DNA of 35,945 nucleotides from a virus (IMGVR_UViG_3300046779_000966:1-35945); one strand, 5' to 3'. Counted from the first letter of the stretch, positions 14,678 to 34,642 are shown. Numbers and translations are program-made. Notes: generated by a model not told the origin, from the letters alone.

Positions 14678-14967
14678 TATCCCTCAATCACTGCAAAAAT
14701 GTCACGGTATGGAAGGATTACAAGCTTCTTACCATCGTGCTCAACCTCGTTGCCACTGTACTTAGAGTAAATAACCTTATCTCCAACCTGCAAATCAATC
14801 GACATCTTAGTGCCGTCTGCAAAGGTTGCTCCAGTTCCAACTGCTACAACAATGCCCTCTGTAGGCTTTTCCTTTTCTGTGGTGCTAATGATCAATCCAG
14901 ACGCAGACTTCTTCTCTGCTTCTACGATTGGCTCAACAACTACCTTGTCTTCTAGTGGTTTAATCAT
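14677..14967 (-). CDS. groES: co-chaperonin GroES
   Basis: IKPLEDKVVV, SASGLII, G.VVAVG.G, VGDKVIYSKYSG.EV. Confidence 0.95.
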   Translation of the reverse strand: MIKPLEDKVVVEPIVEAEKKSASGLIISTTEKEKPTEGIVVAVGTGATFADGTKMSIDLQVGDKVIYSKYSGNEVEHDGKKLVILPYRDIFAVIEG

Positions 14968-19912: not shown

Positions 19913-20153
19913 ATATATAGTATATCAGGATATAGATGGTTTGACAAGCCTTACCTAACTACCCCAAACCAAATCACTAATAAAACTTTCAGCGATTTTT
20001 TGATCTTCTTCGTAATAATATTTGGGAAAATAATTATATGGTTCGTAATCCCATAATCTGGGAAAATTTTTGATCCTTCGTAATCAAATTGTTATCAAAA
20101 TAGGACTTGACAAATATGAAGGTTTGTGGCGCTGCGCCAATGGGCTGAGGATG

Positions 20154-20426
20154 TTACTCCTCAAACCCATAGCCCAAGATGTCTTCAAGGGTTTCATAGC
20201 CCTCTTCAGTATCTTCCATTTCCAAACCTGTCAAAAGCAGGTCGAAGGTTTCATTGACAAACTTATCAGAAGCCTCTGTTCCCTTTACAATGTCTTCTGA
20301 CAAAGCAAAGGCAAGTGGCAAGCCAATGTCGTTGTATGTGATGAAGTCTTCAAAGTCCTCGTCATCACGATAGTTCAACCATAGGTCTGATAGAATTTTT
20401 GTTTTGTTTTCAAATGATGTAGCCAT
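20154..20426 (-). CDS. hypothetical acidic protein (YNDIGLPLAF)
   Basis: ORF track; AGGAG RBS. Confidence 0.8.
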   Translation of the reverse strand: MATSFENKTKILSDLWLNYRDDEDFEDFITYNDIGLPLAFALSEDIVKGTEASDKFVNETFDLLLTGLEMEDTEEGYETLEDILGYGFEE

Positions 20427-20471
20427 TAGTTCTCCTAGTTAGGTTTCTATTATACCAAATACCGCTGACAA

Positions 20472-20681
20472 TTAGAAGAGCATTTCTCGCTCGTCTACCT
20501 GCTTGTCGTGCTTCTCAAATTCAGCAGCCTCTGCGACAATCATTAGGCGGTTGTATGAAATTGTTGGTGCTAGTCTACCAAGATAAATACCCACTTGGTC
20601 TAGGTCTAAAGTTACATCATTGAGTATTTCAGCAATCTTGACTGCGGTCTTTTCATTCTTGGACATTCCTCGTCTGGTCAT
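20472..20681 (-). CDS. hypothetical protein
   Basis: AGGAG RBS; TTGACT-N17-TACAAT upstream. Confidence 0.75.
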   Translation of the reverse strand: MTRRGMSKNEKTAVKIAEILNDVTLDLDQVGIYLGRLAPTISYNRLMIVAEAAEFEKHDKQVDEREMLF

Positions 20682-20838
20682 TTGTATTCTCCTATGCTGA
20701 TTGTATCAAAATTAGAGGGGGAAGTCAAGAGTAAGAAAGGAAACTCTCGACCTCCCCCCAGTTGGGTACCCACCCTAGCAACCCCTTACTATTTGGGTAC
20801 CTTCCCTCGGAGCTGTGCTCGACGAAGGAGGATTCATG

Positions 20839-21225
20839 TCAATACAGCCAGTTAATCTGTCGATCGCTGGTCATATCGATGGTCATTGGGTCTGGAAGCT
20901 TAGCTAGCATGTCGTCAATGCTAGGGTCCCTGTCTTTGGTCATTGCCAGAAACAGCTCTATTGCCAAGAAGAAGTCACTGCCCCACTCCTTCTCTGGGAA
21001 GCGATGCGCAATGGACTTAGTCTGCTTCTCGTCCAGCTTGAATGCGTCGAGGTAGAAACGCAAGGTCCTACCGTCATCAGTCTGCGCATACACAGATGGT
21101 TGACAGGTTAGATTGTCATCTAACGTAGTCTCTGTAGTCTCCATGTCGTACTCTTCTGCGTAGAATAGGTTTAGGTCGTACTCTGCACTAATAACTTTAG
21201 GCGACAATGTTTGCTTCCTCTCCAT
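20839..21225 (-). CDS. hypothetical protein
   Basis: ORF track; start uncertain. Confidence 0.7.
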   Translation of the reverse strand: MERKQTLSPKVISAEYDLNLFYAEEYDMETTETTLDDNLTCQPSVYAQTDDGRTLRFYLDAFKLDEKQTKSIAHRFPEKEWGSDFFLAIELFLAMTKDRDPSIDDMLAKLPDPMTIDMTSDRQINWLY

Positions 21226-21613
21226 AGATGTTCTTCAAGTCTACCACGGTAGCTACAGGGATGTCAATAGAACCGTACTCACATTCTGGACAATCTGGGT
21301 TACCGTCTTCGAAACCATCTTCGTCAGTACAATCACACATACGGTATGCCCAAGTAGGAACCTCAGTGTACTCGTCATCCCAAGGGTTCTCGGTAATGTA
21401 GTAGTGGATACGGTTTACCCAGTGTAGACCAGCAACAATGTAAGTACCCTCGTCACCGTCTACCTCAGTCCAAACAAAGTTAGGATGAATAGACTTGACA
21501 TAGTCGTACTCACCGTCATAAGTCTCGAAGTGTAGCTGGTCATACTTAACAAGATGATTTTTGATTGGCTTGAAGGTTTCTACCCAAGCGTCATAGGTGT
21601 AAAACTTGCTCAT
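21197..21613 (-). CDS. hypothetical protein with C-terminal Cys cluster
   Basis: G.HWVNRI.YYIT..PW; CDC...CPEC. Confidence 0.8.
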   Translation of the reverse strand: MSKFYTYDAWVETFKPIKNHLVKYDQLHFETYDGEYDYVKSIHPNFVWTEVDGDEGTYIVAGLHWVNRIHYYITENPWDDEYTEVPTWAYRMCDCTDEDGFEDGNPDCPECEYGSIDIPVATVVDLKNIYGEEANIVA

Positions 21614-21626
21614 TGGGGTCTCTCTC

Positions 21627-22151
21627 TTAGAAGTGGAAGTCTACGAATACAATATACCAGTTTTTGTTGCCCTTGTCAATATCTTCTAGCATATATTTTG
21701 TATTAGTTGTTTCGTGATACATGTCATAGAAGTAAGAGTTGAAATCCCACTTGCCCTGTATCATGTCAATCATCTTTGACAGGTCATAGAGGGGGAAGCC
21801 AAAGTCCATTTGTCCGTCATACTTATCTAAACAAGCATTGATGTCAACGTTCTTCTCATTGAAGTGTTTGCGGTATAGGTTGAACTCCCCCATACGTGCC
21901 TCAATACCTTCCTTGACAGTATCAAGAAACTTACGTGGCTCGTCGTCATATGAGATAGTCATAGACTGGTTATCATCGTCATAGCCGTCAGTATCGTTAG
22001 GGTTCCACCTACCGCCACCAGTTACAAACCAATCATACCAAGATGAATAGTTATCACCACTGCCCATGTTTACTTCAAGGTAGTGCTTTACTGAACTGAA
22101 TGCGTGGCTCTTGTCGTCTGCCTGAACTGCGATACGCTGTAATACGTGCAT
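21627..22151 (-). CDS. hypothetical protein (WYDWFVTGGGRW...VDFHF)
   Basis: AGAAAG RBS before MHVLQR. Confidence 0.8.
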   Translation of the reverse strand: MHVLQRIAVQADDKSHAFSSVKHYLEVNMGSGDNYSSWYDWFVTGGGRWNPNDTDGYDDDNQSMTISYDDEPRKFLDTVKEGIEARMGEFNLYRKHFNEKNVDINACLDKYDGQMDFGFPLYDLSKMIDMIQGKWDFNSYFYDMYHETTNTKYMLEDIDKGNKNWYIVFVDFHF

Positions 22152-22182
22152 GGGGTTTCTTTCTTTAGGGTTACACTCTATT

Positions 22183-22737
22183 TTAGAGCAAAACGTTGGC
22201 GTTGTCAACTACTTCTTGCAAGATCGACTCTTCCCTGGCGGTAAGAAACGCTTGAATATACTCTTGCTGGGTAGGTAACTTGTCTAGTGGAAACTCTACA
22301 GTTAGTCCAGCAAACTTACTAATAAACTTATTAGTGTTGTAGTTGATTTCATAGACACCCTCACAGAATAGGTCGTCAGTCTCAAACTCTCGCTCGTCTA
22401 CAAGTGGAACAGGTCCAGCAGACCAACGAACTACATTGAGGATGTCGCCACAGGTATCTCTACTAAAACTAGGAAGCATAGAACCAAACTTCTTCATATG
22501 CGTAGTTTCGGGGTAGCGAGTGTTGTAGTCCTGATAGATAACTTCCCTATCAGTATCAGAGATAAAGTAACACTTATCTAATGCCAACTCCAACTCTTCT
22601 ACAGCGTAGCGGTCAGAGCTAAGGATGTGTAGAATCTTAGCACCCTGTCCCTCTGGATAGTGGTCCCATTGTCCGTACTGTGCTACCTTTAGGATGTTGT
22701 CTTTGTCAATTACTTTAGTTAGTCCACGAGTTCCCAT
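22183..22737 (-). CDS. hypothetical protein (MGTR...QYGQWDHYPEGQG)
   Basis: AGAAAGG RBS; TTGACT-N17-TATAAT upstream. Confidence 0.8.
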   Translation of the reverse strand: MGTRGLTKVIDKDNILKVAQYGQWDHYPEGQGAKILHILSSDRYAVEELELALDKCYFISDTDREVIYQDYNTRYPETTHMKKFGSMLPSFSRDTCGDILNVVRWSAGPVPLVDEREFETDDLFCEGVYEINYNTNKFISKFAGLTVEFPLDKLPTQQEYIQAFLTAREESILQEVVDNANVLL

Positions 22738-22804
22738 TGGAACACCTTTCTTGTTGGGGTTATGTATAGATTATAGTGGATTTGGGGGAAAAAGTCAAGA
22801 GATC

Positions 22805-23035
22805 TTAATCAAATATTTGATAAGCCCTCATACCGACGATGTCCACTGCCTGCCTCTGCACGTCCATCCAGGCAGTCTCACCAAAGAAGTACTTAGCCCT
22901 GCTGCCAGGGGTAACTAGCTTATAGAAATCGAAGTATGTATCTGAACTATATACAGCTACACCCTCGTCATGGTACACACGGTTCCATCCAGTTGAAGAT
23001 ACGGATGGCTTCTTGCTTGCAAATTTCTTTTCCAT
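22805..23035 (-). CDS. hypothetical protein
   Basis: Leaderless after TTGATT-N17-GATAAT. Confidence 0.7.
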   Translation of the reverse strand: MEKKFASKKPSVSSTGWNRVYHDEGVAVYSSDTYFDFYKLVTPGSRAKYFFGETAWMDVQRQAVDIVGMRAYQIFD

Positions 23036-23148
23036 AGCTATATTATCCCAGAATCTGGGGAAAAAATCAAGAGGTTCGTAAAGATATTTTTAAGGTTAAC
23101 TACTTTACATAAGATCTTGGGGGCGCTCCCCAAAGGGGCAGGACTTGC

Positions 23149-23325
23149 CTACCCCTTGAGAAACTTGTGATACCACTTGCGATTAGCCATAGCCTCAATA
23201 GTATCAAACTTGTCAATCATTTCTGAAATCAAGTCTCTGGTATAACTATTGAACTCTGCCATCCACTCTTCGTGTGCCTCATTACTAGCCATCCTAGCAT
23301 ACTTGGCAATCTCTTTACTCTTCAT
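23149..23325 (-). CDS. hypothetical protein
   Basis: Start trimmed to MKSKE. Confidence 0.65.
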   Translation of the reverse strand: MKSKEIAKYARMASNEAHEEWMAEFNSYTRDLISEMIDKFDTIEAMANRKWYHKFLKG

Positions 23326-23431
23326 CTTCACTCTCCACAGGAGCAAACATACGCTGCATCCTCTTGAAACCGTCATAGTCTAGGTTCTCAGTAACCCATT
23401 TCCAAATTGCTTGTTCTGCTTCAGTTGCCAT
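23315..23431 (-). CDS. small hypothetical protein (38 aa)
   Basis: MATEAEQAIWKW...; coupled start/stop. Confidence 0.55.
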   Translation of the reverse strand: MATEAEQAIWKWVTENLDYDGFKRMQRMFAPVESEDEE

Positions 23432-23613
23432 TAGAATACATCCTCATACTTTGGTAGTTCGTCATAGGGGTAGCCGATAGCCATAAGAACATTCTCATAG
23501 GCGTTGATTAGCCCATTGAAATAGTCCTTAGAACTATCATTGATGTCTAGTTCGTTATAGTGTGGAACTAGTTCGTTTAGTCTTCCTAGCAGATGTTCTG
23601 CTAATGAATCCAT
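23431..23613 (-). CDS. hypothetical protein
   Basis: Start trimmed to MDSLAEH. Confidence 0.65.
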   Translation of the reverse strand: MDSLAEHLLGRLNELVPHYNELDINDSSKDYFNGLINAYENVLMAIGYPYDELPKYEDVF

Positions 23614-23629
23614 AGTTACATAGTCTGCG

Positions 23630-23770
23630 TCAGGACTCAACAATTTCAACTGCCTCCCAATCTCCGTCTGGTAATTTGCTGTGCTCTTCAATGGCTAAGT
23701 CAATAGCCTCGTCTTCATCTAATGCTTCCACCCAATAACTTGCGGTGTAATCTACTCTGTATCTTTTCAT
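23630..23770 (-). CDS. small hypothetical protein (46 aa)
   Basis: MKRYRVDY...VEALDEDEAIDLA; directly after promoter. Confidence 0.65.
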   Translation of the reverse strand: MKRYRVDYTASYWVEALDEDEAIDLAIEEHSKLPDGDWEAVEIVES

Positions 23771-23800
23771 AGTTCCTACTTTACCATTGGGGTCTGACAT

Positions 23801-23965
23801 TTATCCTACAAATCCGTATACTGCTTTTTGATACCGCTTACAAGCCAGGGTAGTGTGACCAATCTTTTTAGAATCCGATCGCCATTTCTTACCACATTCA
23901 CGACAAGCATACCAATCATGCTCTTCGCCCTTATGCTTACGAACATCAACAATCTGATTACTCAT
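23801..23965 (-). CDS. small Zn-finger-like protein
   Basis: YACRECGK...H...C. Confidence 0.6.
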   Translation of the reverse strand: MSNQIVDVRKHKGEEHDWYACRECGKKWRSDSKKIGHTTLACKRYQKAVYGFVG

Positions 23966-24149
23966 TTACAATCTCCACATTTACAGCGTCATACAGTTCG
24001 TTATACTTTACAAAAGAATAGATGTCATCTACATAAGCAGACTTATAGTATTCAATCAACTCTTCCTCTGTGAAATTGTTTTCTAGCATTAGTTCATCCT
24101 CGTCTGGATAGTAATCAAAACTAATACTGACTCTTACTACTCTACTCAT
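23958..24149 (-). CDS. hypothetical acidic protein
   Basis: ORF track. Confidence 0.65.
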   Translation of the reverse strand: MSRVVRVSISFDYYPDEDELMLENNFTEEELIEYYKSAYVDDIYSFVKYNELYDAVNVEIVNE

Positions 24150-24366
24150 TTATACAATCCTCACATTGATAGAAATCATCTTCTAGTTTAGTTAGTTTGA
24201 CATCGATGTAACCATACACGCAGCAGGTATTACAAGCAATAGGCTCACAACCTTCTGGGCAATACTCTTGGTCACCCTCACAGGTTCGACAAAAAGGATT
24301 ACAGTCAAATGCCCCTCCGTGATTAGGGCATTCCAAGTGTTCGTGATTACACTTGTAGAGTTCCAT
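24142..24366 (-). CDS. Cys-rich protein
   Basis: CPNHGGAFDCNPFCRTCEG plus further CxxC pairs. Confidence 0.7.
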   Translation of the reverse strand: MELYKCNHEHLECPNHGGAFDCNPFCRTCEGDQEYCPEGCEPIACNTCCVYGYIDVKLTKLEDDFYQCEDCINE

Positions 24367-24470
24367 TACTTTACCTTTGCTAGCATTTCTGACAACCTCT
24401 TCAGTTGGTCAGGGGTAAGGCTCTTGATAACATCTTCATTGATTAGATTAGGGTTCTTCCATTCATTCAT
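24366..24470 (-). CDS. small hypothetical protein (34 aa)
   Basis: Leaderless after promoter. Confidence 0.55.
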   Translation of the reverse strand: MNEWKNPNLINEDVIKSLTPDQLKRLSEMLAKVK

Positions 24471-24492
24471 AGAACCAATTATAGGGGTAGGG

Positions 24493-24678
24493 TCAGACAT
24501 TTATAAAATCCTCTGTGTCAAAGCAATCATCCATGTAGTATTGTTCTGGGGTAGTAACGTAAGACTTCAAGTCATCTAGGGCTGCAGCATCCCACATCTC
24601 CTCAGACCAATCTGCCTCACCAGGCACGGTAAAGGTAATGACAGCATAGTCATTAATAAACCTATAAGTCTTTATCAT
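24493..24678 (-). CDS. hypothetical acidic protein
   Basis: ORF track. Confidence 0.65.
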   Translation of the reverse strand: MIKTYRFINDYAVITFTVPGEADWSEEMWDAAALDDLKSYVTTPEQYYMDDCFDTEDFINV

Positions 24679-24890
24679 TATGCCTCGTAGTGTTCAACAA
24701 CTACAGACTGAGAAACTGTCTTACCATACTCATAGACGACATCCCAGTCAGTCCAAGTGATACGACCATCCTCTTCACGCCACTCCTCTGCTACCTCTTC
24801 TGGTAGGTCATCGGTATCTAGGACATAGAGGACATCCTTTGGGTCATACTCCCACCAGTCACCATTCTGATTTGCGATAAAGATTGTCAT
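24678..24890 (-). CDS. hypothetical acidic protein
   Basis: AGAAAGG RBS before MTIFIAN. Confidence 0.7.
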   Translation of the reverse strand: MTIFIANQNGDWWEYDPKDVLYVLDTDDLPEEVAEEWREEDGRITWTDWDVVYEYGKTVSQSVVVEHYEA

Positions 24891-25055
24891 TAGGGTTGCC
24901 TTTCTTCTTGATGTATCCATTATGCCATAAGGGTCAGACATTGTAAAGGGCGACACGCCGATTTCGGGGAAAAATATTTTGTGTTCGTAATTAAGGTTTG
25001 GATGATTGTATATCTGGAGCGCCACGAACTCGATCAGCTGTCAAGCCACTAGGGC

Positions 25056-25084
25056 AGGCAGTTTATAGACTTGCCTAGGTCTAT
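25056..25084 (-). ncRNA. repeated 3'-UTR pseudoknot, copy B
   Basis: TAGAC-CT-AGGCA-A-GTCTA-TAAAC-TGCCT. Confidence 0.6.
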
Positions 25085-25087
25085 GGC

Positions 25088-26101
25088 TTACGCCATTACG
25101 ACAGACTGAACGACCTTCATCAAGCGGTTCTTCTCAGCATTCACCATTGGGTCAAAACCAGAAGCCGAAGCAAGAATAGACTCGTTAGAGCCACCACGAC
25201 CCGAACGATACCAGTCCAAACGCTCGGTCAATGCGTTGTAAGCACCCCAAGCAGTTCCAGCAATGGTGTTGTTGTAGTCACCGACATAGATAGCCTGAAG
25301 CAAGTCCACCTTTGCGTCATACTTCTTGAATGAACCCTTAGCGTCTTTCTCAGGGGCAGGGTAAGCAAGAGCAACAATCTCGTCAAACTGCGACTTAGTG
25401 ATTTCGGTTTCAATCATAGCCTGAGCCATAGTTGAAAACTCGTCTAGGTAAACCTTAGCCAAGCCAAGAGCCTCACGAGCAACGGCAATTTTACCCTCAG
25501 CAGTCTGAGTGTGACGGATTTTGAAGGTTTGCTTTGGAGCCTTCTTGCCCTTGACAGCAGATAGAGCGAGGTTCAAAGTGTTAGCACATACAACACGAAC
25601 AGGAGTAATCGAAGCCTGAATAGCAATCGAACCGTCGTGAGAGGTGTTGATTAGCAGATAGTTGTCAATCTTATCAGCACGACCGTTAGGGTCTAGGGTA
25701 ATGCTATCGGTTAGAGCAATCGAACCAAACACAACACGACCGCCACGAATAGAGCCAGCAGTTTCCCAACGACCGCCACCGTCTAGCAGGTTGTCACCAA
25801 ATGAGAACAAGTCCTCGTTCTGAAGCGGAACATAACGCTCACCAACAACGCCAAGAACATCATTCTTAGTGCGGTCAAATGGGTTAGTGCGAGTAACGAA
25901 AGAGTAAGACTTGTCAGACTCAAAGTTCTCAGGAATAGCAACATCTTCTAGGCGAACATTCCAGTTGTCTAGGTGTGCGAGTTTCAACATCTCAGAGGTG
26001 TTTACCTCGTCTTCAAACACAGTGCCAAGACCATGCCAAGCAGGTTGGCGAAGCGAAGCAAAGGCAGTCTGTCCGTTTACGGTTTCTAGTTCGTGAGCCA
26101 T
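25088..26101 (-). CDS. DUF932 / TIGR03299 phage-plasmid protein
   Basis: PAWHGLG, Y.PLQN, ETAGSI.GG, SHDGS, TPVRVVCANTL, GTAWGAYNA. Confidence 0.9.
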   Translation of the reverse strand: MAHELETVNGQTAFASLRQPAWHGLGTVFEDEVNTSEMLKLAHLDNWNVRLEDVAIPENFESDKSYSFVTRTNPFDRTKNDVLGVVGERYVPLQNEDLFSFGDNLLDGGGRWETAGSIRGGRVVFGSIALTDSITLDPNGRADKIDNYLLINTSHDGSIAIQASITPVRVVCANTLNLALSAVKGKKAPKQTFKIRHTQTAEGKIAVAREALGLAKVYLDEFSTMAQAMIETEITKSQFDEIVALAYPAPEKDAKGSFKKYDAKVDLLQAIYVGDYNNTIAGTAWGAYNALTERLDWYRSGRGGSNESILASASGFDPMVNAEKNRLMKVVQSVVMA

Positions 26102-26254
26102 GGGGTTCAACTTTCTTTTAGTAGGGATTTCTGATAAGACTATTATGACAGAACCCTCTGACATTGTCAATACTATTTGGGAAAATTTTTTGGCGTGTCG
26201 TAAACATCTTCGTAAACCAGGGAAGCTCGATCCTGGGCGGGCGCTCCGCAGGGG

Positions 26255-26282
26255 GAGCAGTTTTACAACTTGCTCAGGTTGT
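26255..26282 (-). ncRNA. repeated 3'-UTR pseudoknot, copy C
   Basis: ACAAC-CT-GAGCA-A-GTTGT-AAAAC-TGCTC. Confidence 0.6.
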
Positions 26283-26287
26283 TTTGT

Positions 26288-26470
26288 CTACTTCCCAACA
26301 AGGATTAGACTAGGGCTACGCTTACGCTTAGCCTTTGGCTTTGCTGGAATGTTCGTGGTCTGGTTGGTAGCACCGAGGAACTTTCCGTCAGCGGTACGGA
26401 CTACCGCCTTGTAGACCTCACCATTCTTGGTGTTCCACTTCTCAGTTGCGATAACAATCTTCTTAGTCAT
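26288..26470 (-). CDS. small basic protein (R.ADGKF.GATNQT)
   Basis: AAGGA RBS before MTKK. Confidence 0.7.
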   Translation of the reverse strand: MTKKIVIATEKWNTKNGEVYKAVVRTADGKFLGATNQTTNIPAKPKAKRKRSPSLILVGK

Positions 26471-26503
26471 TTGTTTCCTTTGTTTGTTGGGATAGTTTAT
26501 GTT

Positions 26504-26531
26504 GAGCAGTTTAGACACTTGCTCAGGTGTT
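26504..26531 (-). ncRNA. repeated 3'-UTR pseudoknot, copy D
   Basis: ACAC-CT-GAGCA-A-GTGT-CTAAAC-TGCTC. Confidence 0.6.
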
Positions 26532-26549
26532 TAGGCGTAAACCTATGGT

Positions 26550-26999
26550 TTAGATAAGGTCAATCACAGACGAGTAAGAACTTGCCGAGATTTCCTCTTG
26601 GGTAGTCATACGCAATACCTTGAGGTTCTGCTCTAGGACTTCCTTGCGGTTGATGTGCTTGTTGCCATACCACTCAGACTGATTAGGCTTCTTAGGCTCA
26701 GTTGGGCGAACAGGGAAACCAACAATCTTGTCTGAGTCAAAGTTCAACTCAAGACGACCATTGTAGTTGGTGTTGATACGGATTAGGTCATTGAACTCAT
26801 AACCAATCTTCTCAACATTCTGGCTAACATAGTCAATGATAGCCTTAGCAACCTCGACCTTGTAGTTTGCTAGGTCTGCTTCATACTTCTCGTAGTCAGC
26901 AGGGTATGAGGCAATCTTAGCGTCAATCTCAGCAATAGCAGCCTCAATCTGAGAGATAACAGCAGCGGTTGGAACTTTTACGGACAGGGCACGAGCCAT
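26550..26999 (-). CDS. hypothetical coiled-coil protein
   Basis: ORF track; own promoter. Confidence 0.8.
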   Translation of the reverse strand: MARALSVKVPTAAVISQIEAAIAEIDAKIASYPADYEKYEADLANYKVEVAKAIIDYVSQNVEKIGYEFNDLIRINTNYNGRLELNFDSDKIVGFPVRPTEPKKPNQSEWYGNKHINRKEVLEQNLKVLRMTTQEEISASSYSSVIDLI

Positions 27000-27069
27000 T
27001 TGTTTCTTCTTTCTTTTGTTGGGGTTTGGAACTCTATTATTATGCCATAGGGGTCTGACATTTTAGTGT

Positions 27070-27097
27070 GGGCAGTTTTACTTGATACCCAGCAAGC
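27070..27097 (-). ncRNA. repeated 3'-UTR pseudoknot, copy E
   Basis: CTTG-CT-GGGTA-T-CAAG-TAAAAC-TGCCC. Confidence 0.55.
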
Positions 27098-27115
27098 AGT
27101 TTATTCTCCTGCGAG

Positions 27116-27271
27116 TTACTTGACAGTAGTCCAGCGAGGGTTGCCGTTTACATCAAGACGAACTCGGAATGAGCCTGTCTTGTTCTCGACAACTTCCTGA
27201 ACAATACCGACAACGCCAGACTTCTGGGTTGCGAACTGTGAGCCAACAGTAGGGGCGATTACATTTGCCAT
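27116..27271 (-). CDS. small beta-rich (SH3-like?) protein, 51 aa
   Basis: MANVIAPTVGSQFATQKSGVVGIVQEV...RWTTVK; two tandem TTGACA-N17-GATAAT promoters upstream. Confidence 0.7.
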   Translation of the reverse strand: MANVIAPTVGSQFATQKSGVVGIVQEVVENKTGSFRVRLDVNGNPRWTTVK

Positions 27272-27507
27272 TTATTGCTTCTTTCTACCTAGACCTATTG
27301 CTAGGATTTGTTTGATTTGTTTACATTCTATTATCTCAAGAAAACTAAGAGTTGTCAAGCATTTTCTCAAAGTTTTTTGACTTATTTTTTCTTGCGTTTC
27401 TTCTTTTCTTGATACATCTATTATCGGGGATTTCGGGGGAAATGTCAAGCATTTCTTAAAACTTTTTTCGGCGTGTCGCAGGATCGATCGGGGCGCTCCC
27501 CGAAGGG

Positions 27508-27537
27508 GGGCAGTTTACGTAGACATGCCCAGGTCGT
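27508..27537 (-). ncRNA. repeated 3'-UTR pseudoknot, copy F
   Basis: GAC-CT-GGGCA-T-GTC-TACG-TAAAC-TGCCC. Confidence 0.55.
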
Positions 27538-27568
27538 TTTTCGTAGGGGGAAAGAAAGGATAAGAACC

Positions 27569-27997
27569 CTACGAGGTCTTGTTACTCCAGATGACATCTG
27601 AACTGTAGTCAACAATGTCTTCATGGCTTACAGCAAAGTCAAAGTCCCAGTCTGGGTCAACCTCGCTGTCAATGCTGTGCTCAACCTCAATTGTAAACGT
27701 TACATTTACTTCATAGGTTGCGGTCTTGGTCAATTCAATATCAAGATTATCAGCAATGTGCTTGATAGTCTCAAGGTCGTGGTCCTCAACTGCTTCGGTT
27801 AGGACGTTCTTTACACGCTCCTCATACTTCCACTTTTCCTGACGGATTTCACGAATGCGTTGCTCTGACTTTTCCATTGCGTCGCTCTGGGCAGACACAA
27901 GGCTCTCAAGGTTAGAAATCTGCGCCTTCAGGCTCTGAAGCACAGGGTGCTCACTTGCTACAGTGTTGTCAATGATTGCGTTCTCAAAGTTTTCCAT
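27569..27997 (-). CDS. hypothetical coiled-coil, acidic protein
   Basis: AAGGA RBS before MENFEN. Confidence 0.8.
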   Translation of the reverse strand: MENFENAIIDNTVASEHPVLQSLKAQISNLESLVSAQSDAMEKSEQRIREIRQEKWKYEERVKNVLTEAVEDHDLETIKHIADNLDIELTKTATYEVNVTFTIEVEHSIDSEVDPDWDFDFAVSHEDIVDYSSDVIWSNKTS

Positions 27998-28051
27998 GTT
28001 GTTCCTTTTCTTTTTGGTGATACGTCTAATTATAGCGAGGGGGTCAGACAT

Positions 28052-28255
28052 TTAGTCCTCCAGCCACTCCGATACATCTTGTCCGTCAAGGAATGCCTGC
28101 GCAAACTTGATACGCTGATAGTCTGGTAGTTCACCTAGGATTTCTAGATACTCTTCTGGAAAGTCACTTAGGCTAGTGATTAGGATGTCGTCGCCACCAT
28201 AGTTACCGTCAGCGGTAATGTACAGTAGGTTTCCTGATAGTTTGTCGTATGCCAT
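28052..28255 (-). CDS. hypothetical protein (DGNYG motif)
   Basis: ORF track; own promoter. Confidence 0.7.
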   Translation of the reverse strand: MAYDKLSGNLLYITADGNYGGDDILITSLSDFPEEYLEILGELPDYQRIKFAQAFLDGQDVSEWLED

Positions 28256-28380
28256 GGGGTTCCTTTTCTTTTGATATATCTATTATGAGGCATAGCTCCG
28301 ACATTGTCAAGCTTTTTCGGGAAAAATCTTAATCGTGTCGTAAATAGGTCGATCTGCGCAGAGCGCCCCCGAAGGGGTAC

Positions 28381-28503
28381 TCAAGTGGTACAGACCAAAA
28401 CAAGTACAACAAAAACAGTGATTAGCCAAGGTAGCGTGAATATCATAGCAATGATATCCATACTGCTTCTAAATGGCTCTTCGGGCATCTCTTCTCTATC
28501 CAT
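28381..28503 (-). CDS. small membrane peptide (40 aa)
   Basis: AAGGA RBS; C-terminal hydrophobic stretch. Confidence 0.5.
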   Translation of the reverse strand: MDREEMPEEPFRSSMDIIAMIFTLPWLITVFVVLVLVCTT

Positions 28504-28512
28504 TACCTATCC

Positions 28513-29232
28513 TTACTTTTTACTTGCCGAAAACAGAATGTCGTTGCGAGAGAATACGCATTGCGAACACAACACACAGGCAGAACCTTTATCGGTAATC
28601 AGTTTCAACTTGCGGTTGTTCTCAGGGCAAGGAACAGCAGACTTATCCTGAATAGCCTTGAAATCCTCTTTACCCTCGGCAAAAGTGTTAGCAAGGTATG
28701 CCAACTTGATACCATACTGCTTCTTCAACTTGATACCTAATGCTCGGTTAGCAGCGTCAGTTGAGAAATACAAACCTAGGTTTTCAATTCCAACTAGGTG
28801 TGGAACAGCAAAGTCGCTTCTGGTGTAAACCCAAAACTGAACATCCTTGTGCTTTAGGATTACATCACGCCAAGCCATTACATAAGTCTCATTGAAAAAG
28901 TCGCCATCCCAATGGATACGGAACAACTTCTCGGCATTACGCTTCTCGCAATCCTTGTTGAAATCAGTAATCATCTCGTCTAGCAGGTTATACATAGTTA
29001 GGTAATCAGCGTTTACCAATTGCTCATAGTTGCTCACTAGGATGTTGCGAACACCCTTGTATACCTTCTCAAGTTTGCCAGCGTAGCACATCTTCTCGCA
29101 AACCGAGGTAGCCCCAGGGCAGGAATAAGCCTTGCCAGCAGGTAAACCAAAAGTGTTAGCAATAGTAGGTGTCTTGCCATTAGGTGATACAGCGTTAGTA
29201 ACTTTGCGGTCTTTGCTTCTGATAAGTGCCAT
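28513..29232 (-). CDS. Gp88-like protein (radical-SAM-like Cys motif)
   Basis: FGLPAG..SCPGA...C...CYA, FRIHWDGDF, W.YTR, C..C..C. Confidence 0.75.
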   Translation of the reverse strand: MALIRSKDRKVTNAVSPNGKTPTIANTFGLPAGKAYSCPGATSVCEKMCYAGKLEKVYKGVRNILVSNYEQLVNADYLTMYNLLDEMITDFNKDCEKRNAEKLFRIHWDGDFFNETYVMAWRDVILKHKDVQFWVYTRSDFAVPHLVGIENLGLYFSTDAANRALGIKLKKQYGIKLAYLANTFAEGKEDFKAIQDKSAVPCPENNRKLKLITDKGSACVLCSQCVFSRNDILFSASKK

Positions 29233-29357
29233 TGGGGTTGCCTTTCTTTACTTGTTTATTTTAGCAGTAGGGTCAGACATTTATAGTATTTCGGGGCAAA
29301 ATATTTTCGTGTCGTAAACCGATCCTCAGCTGCGTGGGCGCTCCCCGAAGGGAGAGG

Positions 29358-29666
29358 TTAGTCCTCTAGACCTTCCTCGTCAAGTTCAACCCATGACTGA
29401 AGGTGGTGTCCTTCGATGATTGCCCATGCTGGAGCGGTATCCTGACCACGCCAAGTAATCTGGAATGGCTTACCATTTCGCTCACCATCAAAAGGCAAGT
29501 CAATCTCCTTGTCCCAGTCACCCTCAAGGGCAGCGTCAATAGCCTCAACGCATGGCTGAATCATGACTAGGGGAACAGGTGGATAGTGGTTTGAACGCAA
29601 GTGCCATGCTAGACCATCTTCGATAGTCATTAGTTCTGCCATCTCTGCTGCTTGAAGTGAACCCAT
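29358..29666 (-). CDS. hypothetical protein (HL..NHYPPVP...HHL..W)
   Basis: ORF track; own promoter. Confidence 0.8.
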   Translation of the reverse strand: MGSLQAAEMAELMTIEDGLAWHLRSNHYPPVPLVMIQPCVEAIDAALEGDWDKEIDLPFDGERNGKPFQITWRGQDTAPAWAIIEGHHLQSWVELDEEGLED

Positions 29667-29716
29667 TAGTTTCCTACTTTCTTTAGATAGTTATAGATTA
29701 GCATGAGGGTCAGACA

Positions 29717-29914
29717 TTATTTGCCTGCCCACACCGCCCTGCCTGTTTCCTCTAGAAACTCAAAGTCTTCCTCAAACAAAACTTGGTCTTCTGGCAAGCC
29801 AACTAGGTGAGGTGGGATGTCATCGAAAACAACTCGGTAACTAGCAAGAGCTTGCTCCTCGCTGTTTGCGTTTACTCTGTATCTGCGTGTTAGCTCTATC
29901 TCGAATTCTGGCAT
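29717..29914 (-). CDS. hypothetical protein
   Basis: GAAAGG RBS; own promoter. Confidence 0.7.
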   Translation of the reverse strand: MPEFEIELTRRYRVNANSEEQALASYRVVFDDIPPHLVGLPEDQVLFEEDFEFLEETGRAVWAGK

Positions 29915-29958
29915 TGGTATCCTTTCAGTTAGTTAGACTTTACCATAGGGGTATGACA

Positions 29959-30087
29959 TTATAGATAGTCAATGATGTCGCCATCGAAACCCATTACATC
30001 TAGGTCTGCCATTACCTGTGAATAAGAAATCTCTCCAGCCTGTGCCAACTCAAAAAGTTCCATTACATCTGGGTCTAGTTCGTTCAT
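29959..30087 (-). CDS. small acidic protein (42 aa)
   Basis: GAAAGG RBS; own promoter. Confidence 0.6.
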   Translation of the reverse strand: MNELDPDVMELFELAQAGEISYSQVMADLDVMGFDGDIIDYL

Positions 30088-30207
30088 TGGGGTTCCTTTC
30101 GTTGATAGATAAATTATTACACACCCCTCTGACATTTATTTCGGGGAAAAAGATCTTAGCATCGTAACTAAGCTATCCAGCTGGGCGGAGCGCCCCGAAG
30201 GGGAGGA

Positions 30208-30651
30208 TTACTCCTCCTCCTCCTGAGAGTCATCATAGCAATCACGACACATACCCTCGTCATAGATGTCATCATCACCGCACTTGTCGCAACGCTCGGT
30301 CTGGCAGTCCCAACCATCACAGTTTTCCTCGCCACACTCAAGGCACTCGTCAAACTCTCTAGCACCCTGCTCAATTAGAGTTTCAAAGCCGAGGTTTGGG
30401 TCTTCCCCATTTGGCATAGTTGAAACTGCTTCAACAAACTTCAAGCCACAACTCTCGGCATACCAATGCTTGACAGTTTCCAACATCTCACTAGCAGACA
30501 TCTCGCTCTTAGAGATTAGTGGGTCATAGTCATACTCTTTCATCTTGACCATCTGCTGGTCATCCATCAGGATGTAAATCTTGTGGCAGGTATCGAAAGC
30601 AATACCCTTAGCCTCGTCAATGCGGTCTTCGACCAAATCCCAATCCAACAT
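30208..30651 (-). CDS. acidic protein with C-terminal Cys-rich Zn fingers
   Basis: FDTCHKIY, SCGLKF, several CxxC. Confidence 0.8.
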   Translation of the reverse strand: MLDWDLVEDRIDEAKGIAFDTCHKIYILMDDQQMVKMKEYDYDPLISKSEMSASEMLETVKHWYAESCGLKFVEAVSTMPNGEDPNLGFETLIEQGAREFDECLECGEENCDGWDCQTERCDKCGDDDIYDEGMCRDCYDDSQEEEE

Positions 30652-30830
30652 TAGTTGTTTCCCTTCATTACATCCAAAACCTCGTTTGCTCCGTCTGCCT
30701 TGCCAACAGCATAAGCGTAGTCAAAAATCTGACGGATGTTCACAATGGTGTAGATAGACACATCGTGCTTGTCTGCCAACTCCTGAATAGGGTTGTAGTA
30801 GTCGAAGAACTCTTGCTCTTGCTTGGTCAT
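30651..30830 (-). CDS. hypothetical protein (59 aa)
   Basis: AAGGA RBS; own promoter; coupled to the next gene. Confidence 0.65.
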   Translation of the reverse strand: MTKQEQEFFDYYNPIQELADKHDVSIYTIVNIRQIFDYAYAVGKADGANEVLDVMKGNN

Positions 30831-30881
30831 TGGGTATCCTTTCTTAGATACTTAGATTATACGACAGGGGTCAGACATTTA

Positions 30882-31052
30882 TTAGTAAGACTCAGAGATA
30901 GCCTTACGCTTGTTGCTCTGACGGCTTCCCTTATACTTAGCAGGGGTAGCAACAATGTGTGGTGATAGCATTAGGCTCTGGAACAATTCCTTGCTCTCTG
31001 CCTTACGCCTTGCTTCATTAGCCTTGCCTAGTGGCTTTCTATTCTTCTTCAT
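30882..31052 (-). CDS. small basic protein
   Basis: Leaderless MKKNRK...KYKGSRQ. Confidence 0.65.
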   Translation of the reverse strand: MKKNRKPLGKANEARRKAESKELFQSLMLSPHIVATPAKYKGSRQSNKRKAISESY

Positions 31053-31150
31053 ACTAATAAGTATACAGGACACCTCAGACATTTATGGGATTTCGGGAGA
31101 TTTTTCGTAACCTTCGTAAATCGATCGATCGAGCTGGGGGGCGCTTCCTC

Positions 31151-31345
31151 CTAGTCGAAAGCATACCTAGAAGCATACATCTCACCGATGGCTGCTTCCT
31201 CTGCCAGCCGTGCCTCAGCACGAGCACGAGCCTGCTTCTCAGCAGGGGTGAGGGCTGCCTCCTCAGCAGCAATCTCCTCCTGCCAAGAGAGGAAGTCCTC
31301 CCACTCCTGGGCTTGCTCTTCTGGGGTCATCTCTGATAGGAACAT
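31151..31345 (-). CDS. small helical acidic protein
   Basis: AGAAAGG RBS; TTGATT-N17-TAAGTT upstream. Confidence 0.7.
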   Translation of the reverse strand: MFLSEMTPEEQAQEWEDFLSWQEEIAAEEAALTPAEKQARARAEARLAEEAAIGEMYASRYAFD

Positions 31346-31500
31346 AGTTCACCTTTCTTTCTAAGATAAACTTAGCATAGATCTGGGGGAAAATCAAGTC
31401 GTGTCGTAAATAATTTGTAACAAATAGATCACGATCGGGAGCGCTCGGCACAACATCTAGTAGCAAGCTTGGTTATTGCCACTAGATATTGTGTTACCGT

Positions 31501-31620
31501 TTAGAACGGAGGCTTGTTTTGGTCTAGACCCTTGCGGAAACCGATGCCGTGAGCCAGAAGGTATACTACGCTAACAAGGATGATGTCGATTAGGAGGTTA
31601 AAGCCGTTGTAAAAAATCAT
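31501..31620 (-). CDS. small membrane peptide (39 aa)
   Basis: GAAGGGA RBS; own promoter; one TM. Confidence 0.6.
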   Translation of the reverse strand: MIFYNGFNLLIDIILVSVVYLLAHGIGFRKGLDQNKPPF

Positions 31621-31722
31621 TTCAGTTCCCTTCGTTTGATGACTCTAGGATACCACGAGTATCCGACAACATCAAGTCAATTTTGAAAATTAGTTCCTCA
31701 AGTTCCTCAACGCTTAGTTTGC

Positions 31723-31893
31723 TCATTTCTGAACCTCCATCTCTTCAACCATCTTAGCAATTCTTTGGGCAGTTGGCAAGTCCACATTTGGCAAAAGCAT
31801 ACCAAGCATTCTGGCGTATGGGAAATCAGCCTTAGTCTTGAGAACCTCTAGGGTCTTGTCCAATAGGTCGTGTGCCTCTTTGCTGTAACTCAT
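31723..31893 (-). CDS. hypothetical protein (56 aa)
   Basis: AAGGA RBS; own promoter. Confidence 0.65.
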   Translation of the reverse strand: MSYSKEAHDLLDKTLEVLKTKADFPYARMLGMLLPNVDLPTAQRIAKMVEEMEVQK

Positions 31894-31943
31894 TTATTCC
31901 TTCTTTCTAACTTATCTAAAATCTATCACAGGGGTCTGACATT

Positions 31944-32147
31944 TTAGTATTTGGCATAGCCAATGCTAATACCATACTTCCAGCCCTTGATACTTGGGTG
32001 GCTCAAGATAGCGTCAACCTGCTCTTGGCTTGATACAGGGAACTTGTGAACGGTGAACATCTCTAGTGGCTTGCCGTCATTACGCAAAGCCCAATCACGA
32101 ATGTTCTCGCCACGCTTGGTCACAATCAGGGTATTGAACTCGAACAT
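31944..32147 (-). CDS. hypothetical protein
   Basis: GAGG RBS; own promoter. Confidence 0.7.
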   Translation of the reverse strand: MFEFNTLIVTKRGENIRDWALRNDGKPLEMFTVHKFPVSSQEQVDAILSHPSIKGWKYGISIGYAKY

Positions 32148-32268
32148 CTATTACCTCTTTCTCTAACTACTAAAACACTACCATACCCCTCCGACATTTA
32201 TTGGGACATTTCTGGGCGTGTCGTAAATTGCTTCGTAACTGGGATCTTTTTTTCGGGGCGCTCCGAGA

Positions 32269-32367
32269 CTACCCCTCCCAAGGGTAGTAGTCTGGAGCCT
32301 CTAAGCCATAAGGCTGATAGACATCTGAGTCACAGCCACAGCAAGGGCGGTCTTCACATTGGCACAT
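32269..32367 (-). CDS. 32-aa Cys-rich peptide MCQCEDRPCCGC...
   Basis: AAGGAG RBS; own promoter. Confidence 0.65.
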   Translation of the reverse strand: MCQCEDRPCCGCDSDVYQPYGLEAPDYYPWEG

Positions 32368-32417
32368 AGGTTCTCCTTCGGGGTTGATAGAACAAATCTA
32401 GCATAGGGGGTGGACAT

Positions 32418-32555
32418 TTATTTGATTTTTTCCCAAGACACAATCCAGCCGTGGTCAAAAGCCATCTTGACCCAATCCAAATTCTTTGCGGTGTTCTCAA
32501 TAACCTGCTTGGTGTTGCTAGGGGTAACGATTTCGATGTGTGTGTATTTGCTCAT
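32418..32555 (-). CDS. small hypothetical protein (45 aa)
   Basis: Leaderless after promoter. Confidence 0.6.
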   Translation of the reverse strand: MSKYTHIEIVTPSNTKQVIENTAKNLDWVKMAFDHGWIVSWEKIK

Positions 32556-32668
32556 AAGAATAAACTAGCATAGGGTTCGGACATTTATTTTGGGAGATCG
32601 TACACTGCTATCGTAACTAAGATCGATCCAGCTGCCGAGCGCCTGCGTCGGGCGTGTCGCCCTAGCGG

Positions 32669-32860
32669 TTACCATTTCCTGGTTGAACCCATTGACTTGG
32701 CTAGTCTGGTCAGTAGGGTCAGACGGCGAGACTCCTCTTCCGTGATGTCCCAATCCAATACCTCTTCGGCATACTTGAGTAGTGACTCCAACTCAGTCTC
32801 GATTTCTGCGAGGGTAGAGCCAGTTCCGATGTATGGGTTGAAAACTAGTGACTTGAACAT
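32669..32860 (-). CDS. hypothetical protein
   Basis: AGAAAGGA RBS; own promoter. Confidence 0.7.
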   Translation of the reverse strand: MFKSLVFNPYIGTGSTLAEIETELESLLKYAEEVLDWDITEEESRRLTLLTRLAKSMGSTRKW

Positions 32861-32910
32861 TAGTTATCCTTTCTTTCTAAAACTAATCTAGCATTAGGGT
32901 CAGACATTTA

Positions 32911-33075
32911 TTAGAGGTAGTCTAACAAGTCTACGCCTAAATACTCTTCGGTGTGAGAGGTGAACGGCATTAGTCCGTCATACTCGTTACACTCAGGGCA
33001 GAGGTAAGCATAGGTTGTGTTGTAGCAGTAAGCACAGATACGGAGGTCTGCGTCTACATTCTCAAACTTGTTCAT
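32911..33075 (-). CDS. small Zn-finger protein (C..C...C..CNEYDG)
   Basis: GAAAGGA RBS; own promoter. Confidence 0.7.
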   Translation of the reverse strand: MNKFENVDADLRICAYCYNTTYAYLCPECNEYDGLMPFTSHTEEYLGVDLLDYL

Positions 33076-33123
33076 TTCATTTCCTTTCGATTTACTACAA
33101 ACTTAGCATAGGGGTCAGACATT

Positions 33124-33273
33124 TTAGTAGGTCTTGTTGAATTGTAGGTCTGCCCAAACCCTCCACTGAACAGGGTGGATTTCTGCTTCCCTGTCCTGCT
33201 TGATTAGGTCTAGAATGTAGCGGTAGAATTCTTTTTCGCTCTTGGTCATTCTTGGCTTACGGGTCTTGTTCAT
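33124..33273 (-). CDS. small hypothetical protein (49 aa)
   Basis: AGAAAGG RBS; own promoter. Confidence 0.65.
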   Translation of the reverse strand: MNKTRKPRMTKSEKEFYRYILDLIKQDREAEIHPVQWRVWADLQFNKTY

Positions 33274-33457
33274 CTGATACCTTTCTTTCTAACTACTACA
33301 AACCTAGCACATAGGTCTGACATTGTCAATACTATTTTGGTAACAAATTGATAACATTCTGGGGGATCTAGATCTAGTGTCTTAAAGCTCGTAAGCTACT
33401 AGATCTTGGGGTCGGGCGCTCCGAAAGCGTGGACTTGTCAAGTCGACACGCCGTTAT

Positions 33458-33676
33458 CTAAGCAAGTTCCTCTTCGGTCAGAGGCTTGCGAAGACCTTGG
33501 GCTAGGAAGCGTTCAAAGTGATACATCTTCTCAGCCGAGGAAGCAACGAAGACCACGCCTTTACGCTTAGCGAAAAAGTCCATTGCTGGGTGACCATACA
33601 TAGCAACCTGAACACCTCGGTACACAGTGCCGTCAGCGGTTCTACCTGTTACAACCCATTCAATTCCATTAGCCAT
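33458..33676 (-). CDS. hypothetical protein
   Basis: AAGGA RBS; own promoter. Confidence 0.7.
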   Translation of the reverse strand: MANGIEWVVTGRTADGTVYRGVQVAMYGHPAMDFFAKRKGVVFVASSAEKMYHFERFLAQGLRKPLTEEELA

Positions 33677-33930
33677 TTGTTTTCCTTTTCTTTTGATAAA
33701 TCTATTCTATTGTGGGGGTGTGACATTGAGATGTATTCTACATTGCTCTCACGTCGTTACGACCAGCGGTATCTCTAAAGCCACTGCTCCTGCTCTTTGT
33801 TTCCATACCTATAACTTAGCATATACCACCGACATTTATCAAGGGAGATCGTAGTATCTACGTAACAGAATGATAACGATCCGAGCGCTCCGAAGTGGTC
33901 AGTTTGTCAAGCTGACCCTTGGGCGTGTCG

Positions 33931-34089
33931 TTAGCATTTACACCTAACAACCTCAATGTGGTCCTTGTAGACCTTGATAGCAGCGAGGGTAGAGCAAGTC
34001 TGACACGCAATAACACTAAGCTTAGGCAACTTACCCAATACACGCTTAGTCATTACCGCCTTAGTCAGCATAGCCAATCCGAATCCCAT
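33931..34089 (-). CDS. small basic Cys-containing protein
   Basis: AGAAAGGA RBS; CQTC...CKC. Confidence 0.65.
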   Translation of the reverse strand: MGFGLAMLTKAVMTKRVLGKLPKLSVIACQTCSTLAAIKVYKDHIEVVRCKC

Positions 34090-34137
34090 AGTTGTATCCT
34101 TTCTTGATACTATTAGTTTAGGTGAGGGGTCTGACAC

Positions 34138-34383
34138 TTATGCGTGAGCAGAGCAAACATAGAATGAGTCAATGTCCTCAACCATACGCTTGCCAGACTT
34201 TGACCAACGAGGACGAGCATAGGTTACCTTAGCAACAACAGTGTCGTCACAGTTACAGCAAGGGCAGTCGTCATAGGACTGGCAACCCCAACCCTCAACC
34301 GATACTGACTCACGAGCAATCTCAGTCCACTCAAAGAAACCAAAGTTCCTCATCTCGTTTAGTGTGTATCCCTTGGTAGCCAT
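34138..34383 (-). CDS. Cys-rich protein (CQSYDDCPCCNC...C..H); first gene of the array
   Basis: GAAAGGA RBS; own promoter. Confidence 0.7.
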   Translation of the reverse strand: MATKGYTLNEMRNFGFFEWTEIARESVSVEGWGCQSYDDCPCCNCDDTVVAKVTYARPRWSKSGKRMVEDIDSFYVCSAHA

Positions 34384-34642
34384 TTCTTTTCCTTTCCTAA
34401 CTAAATAAATACTAACAGATGGCACGGACATTGAACAACTCGACACGCCGTAGTGGATCGATCTTTTTTATTTATTTGGCTGGCACCAGTAGCTAGCTGT
34501 GGTCGCACTATATATTTGGGTTTTGTGGCGTAGAACGTGTATCATACATCTCTAAAAAATATTCAGATTTTTCCAAATATAAAATTTTTCAGATTTTGCA
34601 CGGTATGAAATGTAACAGAATTATAACAAATCTATATTTGTA

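Follow-up and report, generated by a model that had tools for sequence, protein, structure and literature searches.

Known Promoters of This Kind and the Stretch Analysed

PafBC promoters of Actinobacteria, also called RecA-independent (RecA-NDp) or −26-element promoters, combine an invariant GTC at −27 to −25 with a 10-nt spacer and a SigA-type −10 hexamer (PMC8635444, PMC11804915). Their consensus is given as tGTCgg(N10)tA(N3)T, with the first hexamer at −28 to −23 and the GTC triplet read by residues R46 and R50 of PafB (PMC8635444). The same account describes the element as unlike −35 motifs and such promoters as not read by RNA polymerase with SigA alone, and PafBC is reported to be activated by single-stranded DNA (ssDNA) of at least 6 nt and to form its complex only with polymerase that is already on the promoter (PMC11804915). 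The subject here is a series of repeats of this form, which we call box promoters, on the minus strand of a viral stretch, IMGVR_UViG_3300046779_000966:1-35945 (hereafter the window, meaning the whole stretch of 35.9 kb, with a GC content of 42.5%). The window sites match the PMC8635444 consensus in both sequence and geometry, as the original prediction, made from this sequence alone, had proposed; they are also like the described PafBC promoters in mostly lacking a −35 element and in their frequent predicted leaderless start. They are unlike them in being phage-borne, in standing in tandem before small uncharacterised genes, in having a stronger and mostly extended −10, and in showing an A-tract before the box and more variation at −24. 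The promoter class is already known; the literature searched contained no report of phage promoters with a PafBC box.

We consider it probable that the 26 repeats, which are predicted sigmaA promoters at one per small gene or mini-operon, are read by the host's PafBC, and that this matters to the phage by boosting transcription when ssDNA appears.

Middle promoters of phage T4 are similar in joining a housekeeping −10 to an upstream activator box that replaces the −35 (MotA/AsiA, as treated in PMC8635444). The T4 activator is encoded by the phage, whereas no activator was found in the searched relatives of the window phage, and the box would be the host's.

Phages that use the sites of host regulators include LexA-controlled temperate phages, phi29 with its Spo0A boxes and alphaproteobacterial phages with CtrA sites. 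As in those cases, phage transcription here would be tied to the state of the host through a host regulator; unlike them, where the proteins are repressors or cell-cycle regulators with few sites, the regulator would be an ssDNA-sensing activator acting on dozens of promoters. In the host-takeover module of SPO1 and the mobile early promoter cassettes of T4-type phages, the promoters are of the ordinary housekeeping type and are not known to contain a box for a host activator. The window shares with them dense small genes behind similar, probably early promoters and signs of cassette shuffling, and differs in that its promoters carry a host-type activator box.

A comparable layout, in which small genes on the minus strand have individual promoters, is found in the terminal-repeat arrays of the Streptomyces cluster BE phages (Stanwilliamsviridae; Sushi23, Bmoc, Coruscant), which share with the window homologues of DUF932 (55–56%) and GP88 (41–48%) and have WhiB and ThyX nearby. 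BE phage promoters are mainly of the form TTG-17-TAGACT, whereas those of the window array are mainly box promoters. The DUF932 and GP88 homologues occur twice per BE genome, in terminal repeats of 10–12 kb (PMC8612146, PMC5764925), while the window phage is known from contigs alone.

An Array of 26 Predicted Box Promoters

The sites were counted with a strict pattern, TGTCNG-N10-(T/C)ANNNT, and a relaxed one, TGTCNN-N10-(T/C/A)ANNNT. When 20100–34500 was searched, the strict pattern gave 22 matches between 20449 and 34430, all on the minus strand; there were none on the plus strand of that interval, none within it at a spacer of 9 or 11 nt, and none on either strand of 1–20099, and 200 dinucleotide shuffles yielded a mean of 0.435 matches and a maximum of 3. 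Four one-base variants at the equivalent position (TGTCAC at 33725, TGTCCA at 32416, TGTCAT at 29958 and, at 30134, a site with AATAAT) bring the total to 26 minus-strand sites. The counts thus bear out the original prediction in its figure of about 26 promoter-like sites, in the exactness of the 10-nt spacing and in the absence of the motif left of the array, and its four examples (20470, 29279, 32196 and 33834) all lie on the minus strand where it had placed them. The array and its box promoters are as follows, in window coordinates.

20154–34450, minus: array of about 45 small open reading frames (ORFs), the majority served by a separate promoter and ribosome-binding site (RBS); likely early region
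34409–34430, minus: box promoter TGTCCG-N10-TAGTAT; extended −10; GTGTC at −44
34115–34136, minus: box promoter TGTCAG-N10-TAAACT; neither −35 nor extended −10
33813–33834, minus: box promoter TGTCGG-N10-TAAGTT; ATG at +1 of a 22-codon ORF
33704–33725, minus: variant box promoter TGTCAC-N10-TAGAAT; neither −35 nor extended −10
33301–33322, minus: composite promoter, TTGACA plus TGTCAG-N10-TAGGTT; extended −10
33100–33121, minus: box promoter TGTCTG-N10-TAAGTT
32885–32906, minus: box promoter TGTCTG-N10-TAGATT
32562–32583, minus: box promoter TGTCCG-N10-TAGTTT; ATG at +1
32395–32416, minus: variant box promoter TGTCCA-N10-TAGATT
32175–32196, minus: box promoter TGTCGG-N10-TAGTGT; GACAC at −54
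31920–31941, minus: box promoter TGTCAG-N10-TAGATT
31647–31668, minus: box promoter TGTCGG-N10-TATCCT; TTG at −35
31060–31081, minus: box promoter TGTCTG-N10-TATACT; ATG at +2; neither −35 nor extended −10
30856–30877, minus: box promoter TGTCTG-N10-TATAAT; neither −35 nor extended −10
30113–30134, minus: variant box promoter TGTCAG-N10-AATAAT
29937–29958, minus: variant box promoter TGTCAT-N10-TAAAGT
29695–29716, minus: box promoter TGTCTG-N10-TAATCT
29258–29279, minus: box promoter TGTCTG-N10-TAAAAT, ahead of the GP88 gene
28282–28303, minus: composite promoter, TTGACA plus TGTCGG-N10-CATAAT
28029–28050, minus: box promoter TGTCTG-N10-TATAAT; neither −35 nor extended −10
27039–27060, minus: box promoter TGTCAG-N10-CATAAT
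26142–26163, minus: composite promoter, TTGACA plus TGTCAG-N10-CATAAT, ahead of the DUF932 gene
24919–24940, minus: box promoter TGTCTG-N10-CATAAT; GTGTC at −44
24478–24499, minus: box promoter TGTCTG-N10-TATAAT; ATG at +2; neither −35 nor extended −10
23778–23799, minus: box promoter TGTCAG-N10-TAAAGT; ATG at +2
20449–20470, minus: box promoter TGTCAG-N10-TATAAT

The further claim that the box precedes almost every small gene stands for 23.8–34.4 kb, where there are 25 box sites for 33 listed ORFs, six ORFs look operon-internal and two or three have promoters without a box. It fails for 20.6–23.7 kb, where none of nine ORFs has the box in front of it and four have ordinary −35/−10 promoters.

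Each of the 26 sites is in promoter position ahead of an RBS or of a leaderless ATG. With the first T of the box numbered −28 after PMC8635444, TGTC is present in all 26 and G at −23 in 23; an A falls at the predicted +1 in 19 (pyrimidine-A at −1/+1), the ATG lies at +1 or +2, without a leader, in five, and the remaining leaders measure 17–35 nt. An extended −10 (TG at −15/−14) is found in 19 sites, a TTG at −35 in four and neither in six, such that a −35 is absent from 22 sites and at least one of the two elements is present in 20. The box is directly followed by ACCC in 14 sites (ACCCC in nine). In 11 sites the stop codon of the preceding gene lies 1–5 nt upstream of the box, and the A-tract at this place is partly accounted for by these stop codons.

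A generic scan for promoters and terminators did not rise above shuffled sequence (34 vs. 29.6 and 14 vs. 12.2), and under the patterns used no CRP, DnaA or LexA boxes were found in the window array, apart from one relaxed LexA-like match at 34348. One of the leaderless box promoters opens just a 22-codon ORF (33738–33806, minus strand), which may be a microprotein or a small RNA.

The Counterpart in Candidate Hosts

Rhodopsin-bearing Actinomycetes genomes of 1.3–1.7 Mb, which appear to be acI-like, were taken as candidate hosts; a phylum-wide rhodopsin search gave no low-GC streamlined genomes, and a class-wide search was used instead. PafC was present in all 121 genomes of one streamlined rhodopsin-bearing family and in 23 of 27 selected genomes, with a phylum-wide tally, which includes nine flagged unpublished genomes, of 157/251, and the R46/R50 pair was conserved in 23/23 candidate-host PafB sequences. 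Upstream of recA (within 320 nt), GTC-N12-TANNNT occurred in all 27 candidate-host loci and in strict form in 25, with no strict match at spacers of 8, 9, 11 or 12 nt among the 27. The candidate hosts thus possess both pafBC and a matching regulon, as the original prediction had anticipated. The same box, often leaderless, also precedes radA, a yneA-like gene, a DEDD exonuclease and carD, as well as three C5 methyltransferases, a NERD-helicase and a DrmD-like gene, which suggests that defence-type genes may belong to the PafBC regulon of streamlined actinobacteria. A LexA-type TCGAAC stands right after the −10 in 12/27 host recA promoters, in contrast to the window, where none was found.

Agreement extends to positions outside the fixed bases. 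In a hand count of all matches in four candidate-host genomes, R-24, W-22 and S-21 occurred together in 33/65 matches at spacer 10 vs. 2/38 at spacer 11, and W-22 and S-21 are each present in 24/26 window sites (569/629 and 540/629 sites in related phages). When the spacer alone was compared with a host profile of 63 sites, 50 of which had been chosen by eye from the 65 matches, the sites of related phages correlated with it (r 0.59, p 0.007). Both flavours of spacer start found in the phages, ACCC and TGG, are present in candidate hosts.

Several host loci merit separate record. The methyltransferase, helicase and DrmD-like loci are L270:1-897, L271:229-1200, L278:1-963, L290:88-957 and L268:671-1201, and the carD gene preceded by a PafBC-type promoter is that of a single candidate host (L255:247-726, genome G434). 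Six recA loci (L209, L210, L211, L217, L218 and L221) have, in addition to the strict site, a second GTC-N12-TA..T site about 120–135 nt upstream, which appears decayed in related genomes.

Conservation in Related Phages

A family set of 80 loci around GP88 homologues, some of them near-duplicates, held 835 box sites on the gene strand at spacer 10, vs. 56 at spacer 9 and 25 at spacer 11, and 51 on the opposite strand; 74 of the loci have at least two sites and six at most one. Promoters were also picked in these relatives from the −10, the +1 and the RBS alone, ignoring TGTC, and 228 of the 344 distinct promoters obtained in this way had GTC at −27 (the next-best offset gave 18). Of these 228, 176 lack a −35 and 72 have neither a −35 nor an extended −10. 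GTC is fixed across cassettes that average 47% identity, and in three near-complete relatives the box sites cluster in a homologous arm. The start of the spacer varies by phage lineage, ACCC and TGG being alternative flavours that are homogenised within genomes; the suggestion that ACCCC is a lineage-specific extension is therefore sound, the start being rich in AC or in TG depending on the phage and no required element. An estimated 1000 or so IMG/VR stretches carry a long strict form of the motif.

The reading that the box simply substitutes for a −35 was tried and dropped as statistically unsupported: a −35 occurs in 52/228 related promoters with GTC and 33/116 without (Fisher p 0.29).

How the Array Would Be Read

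If host PafBC is the reader, the array, which would enter early and need host factors only, could be transcribed at a basal level by sigmaA alone on phage entry, given that 20 of the 26 promoters possess at least one of two aids, a −35 or an extended −10. When ssDNA activates host PafBC, the activator would then raise transcription from the box promoters by sigma adaptation; the six promoters with neither element would be the more strictly dependent ones. Possible sources of ssDNA are end resection of the incoming linear genome, nucleases that cut phage DNA or host DNA, and UV damage with its repair. The likely benefit is that the array genes would rise together with the host repair and defence-type genes behind the same box. 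Most likely, the phage box promoters are tuned for strength, to judge by their better −10, the extended −10 and, in some, the −35.

A number of observations weigh against this reading or narrow it. With an extended −10 in 19 of the 26 promoters and a −35 in four, strict on/off control is doubtful, and the original prediction that entry, replication or cleavage of the phage DNA switches these genes on is better put as turning them up. The extended −10 is itself a departure from the host, being found in 19/26 window and 377/629 related sites vs. 12/63 host sites (60–73% vs. 19%), as is a pyrimidine at −24 (12/26 window sites vs. 4% of host sites). In related promoters a −35 can accompany the box, six of the 80 related loci are without the box and have ordinary promoters instead, and of 62 promoter-like sites in six Streptomyces relatives no more than 16 have GTC at −27 (Sushi23 7/14, Bmoc 5/12, Battuta 3/14, Genie2 1/13, Coruscant 0/3 and BillNye 0/6). 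For Streptomyces itself, PMC9380542 reports a first search in which the PafBC motif did not prove to be conserved in S. venezuelae; S. coelicolor is described as having RecA-NDp promoters (PMC5087735). Raw genome-wide counts in candidate hosts were not above a reversed-pattern control (e.g., 13 vs. 18 and 15 vs. 27), so that many host matches must be due to chance and the signal lies in composition and position. The spacer profile of the window alone did not correlate significantly with that of the host (r 0.43, p 0.054), and the profile comparison as a whole is the weaker evidence because its host sites were partly hand-picked. Nor is the link to the candidate hosts direct: array DNA matched none of 201 genomes of the candidate-host family, DUF7455 matches were spread over 46/301 Actinomycetes genomes at 44–56% with no clear closest family, and the phage GroES matched mostly Verrucomicrobia among genome contigs at about 50% identity and is uninformative for the host. 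Finally, the phage family conserves a small helix-turn-helix (HTH) gene to which no target is assigned.

That gene bears on the idea that the box is read by a factor of the phage's own, an activator or sigma adaptor comparable to MotA/AsiA of T4, the likeness to PafBC being due to ancestry or convergence, which we regard as quite unlikely. The window is only about a third of the genome, since near-complete uncultured relatives measure 103–117 kb, and most phage proteins have no family, such that there is room for such a factor. Weak sigma region 4-like HTH matches, below the cut-off, occurred in two of five near-complete relatives, and those in G001 were an HNH-associated HTH and a 49-aa HTH, whose gene (L143:2853-2999, G001) lies near the terminase region and is conserved in three relatives at 76–100%. 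This 49-aa HTH is, however, present in all six Streptomyces phages tested, including those with 0/3, 0/6 and 1/13 box promoters, and therefore does not track the box. The five near-complete relatives contained no WYL domain or sigma region 2, and host-built PafB and PafC profiles run against 31,145 six-frame ORFs found no homologue (best E 0.045); the original prediction would have been undercut by a phage factor, and the relatives yielded no PafB, PafC, WYL or sigma region 2 homologue. The free-position preferences, moreover, agree with the host regulon.

It is also unlikely, if less so, that these are constitutive sigmaA early promoters in which TGTC aids the polymerase directly or has been inherited through duplication or conversion, with a small effect of PafBC. 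The extended −10 in 19/26 and the −35 in 4/26 window sites fit such a view, as do the lack of anti-correlation between box and −35, the homogenised spacer flavour within genomes and the layout of one promoter per gene in box-less relatives. Two of these, L058 and L066, keep that layout with TTG-type −35 elements, and the layout therefore does not by itself create the box. A constitutive role does not readily account for a GTC that stays fixed while cassettes average only 47% identity, for an element that PMC8635444 describes as unlike −35 motifs and unread by the SigA polymerase alone, or for the 6/26 window and 72/228 related sites that have neither −35 nor extended −10. That the sites act mainly as a sponge, depriving the repair and defence genes of the host of polymerase and activated PafBC, is very unlikely: 26 sites in 14 kb do compare with 13–19 strict matches per candidate-host chromosome, many of them by chance, but every site is in promoter position before an RBS or a leaderless ATG, and a complex that needs polymerase already bound (PMC11804915) would make titration a side effect of use. 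Half of the window sites (13/26) contain the palindrome GTCWGAC, and TTGACAATGTCA is read in three, which might point to a dimeric regulator or to the reverse −35 of divergent promoters. Both readings were rejected and are extremely improbable, as the palindrome occurs in only 175/630 related sites, the upstream profile shows no reverse −10 and it is to the forward −10 and +1 that the box keeps a constant distance.

Beyond the reading of host PafBC as the activator lies a wider proposal, offered tentatively and more open to doubt, that in a large and abundant family of freshwater actinophages most of the takeover arm has come under the control of PafBC as the ssDNA sensor of the host. In that case the damage alarm for host repair and defence-island genes would also induce the phage's counter-measures, the timing of infection would follow host DNA damage, for example by sunlight, and the Streptomyces BE phages would keep a partial version. 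If host PafBC does read the box, dozens of phage promoters would be tied to an ssDNA-sensing activator of the host and a stress or defence signal would serve as a cue for phage expression, which would give a testable meaning to a widespread motif. It would also mark about 30 small array genes as candidates for acting under DNA damage and suggest that in streamlined lake actinobacteria the PafBC regulon includes defence-type genes. A further prediction would be an effect of pafBC on how actinobacteria are infected; PMC12848934 cites a 2025 paper that connects pafBC with resistance to mycobacteriophages.

The Phage and Its Environment

The window comes from a tailed actinobacterial phage, and it encodes WhiB, DUF7455, an M23-LysM peptidase, ThyX, a dNMP kinase, GroES, a pyrimidine-dimer glycosylase and six tRNAs. 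An actinobacterial host, assumed in the original prediction, is supported by WhiB and DUF7455 and by the closest cultured relatives: all 60 best cultured matches listed for the DUF932 protein are from Streptomyces phages, at 53–56%. Sushi23, the matched phage whose type was examined, belongs to the Stanwilliamsviridae. The window is present, in whole or in part, in 20 sequencing runs, with freshwater as the label of 18 and rhizosphere as that of two, and the four that cover more than half of the window are all freshwater. No integrase turned up among the phage proteins scanned.

The WhiB gene lies at 5010–5297. Host-like window genes are those for DUF7455 (3275–3520), the pyrimidine-dimer DNA glycosylase (5544–6032), which fits a UV-exposed life, and GroES (14677–14967).

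Array Genes and Other Repeated Words

The other features of the array are the following.

20700–23070, minus: box-free stretch with ordinary −35/−10 promoters; −35 hexamers at 23070, 22798, 22208 and 20728
27330–27448, minus: two ordinary TTGACA-17-GATAAT promoters without a box
25088–26101, minus: DUF932 (PF06067) gene, 337 aa
28513–29232, minus: GP88 (PF17338) gene, 239 aa
24952–34450, either orientation: second repeated word GACACG/CGTGTC; eight copies of GGCGTGTC, all within this interval

Among the array proteins, only DUF932 and GP88 passed the Pfam cut-off, and a protein atlas gave unnamed clusters for one array protein and DUF932 for another. PADLOC gave no match for 14 array proteins, though its models describe defence and have little bearing on anti-defence. 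A role of the array genes in takeover or anti-defence is no more than conceivable. Regions like the BE terminal repeats are expressed early, and the array is likely to be early as well, to judge by its homologues of the DUF932 and GP88 genes that occur twice in BE genomes.

GACACG/CGTGTC words stand upstream of 12 box promoters in both orientations and resemble the GACAC site of WhiA (PMC10243135); in related loci, GTGTC peaks at −43/−44 and GACAC at −53. CRP-like boxes occur in 61/80 related loci, with peaks about 10 bp apart at −71/−72, −81/−82 and −91/−92, and DnaA-like boxes in 69/80; neither is found in the window array. The words TTACGA and GATCG cluster in minus-strand intergenic gaps of the window between 19300 and 35000, often as TTACGACACG.

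Contigs from public runs fuse promoter/RBS cassettes within 24891–33679 of the window (e.g., 24891–26141, 27254–28029 and 33679–33285), which hints at gene shuffling, and the short sides of such contigs may derive from other phages. Outside the array, the window gene at 1166–1402 has TTGACA upstream, and its orthologue in relative G002 (60637) has a leaderless box promoter.

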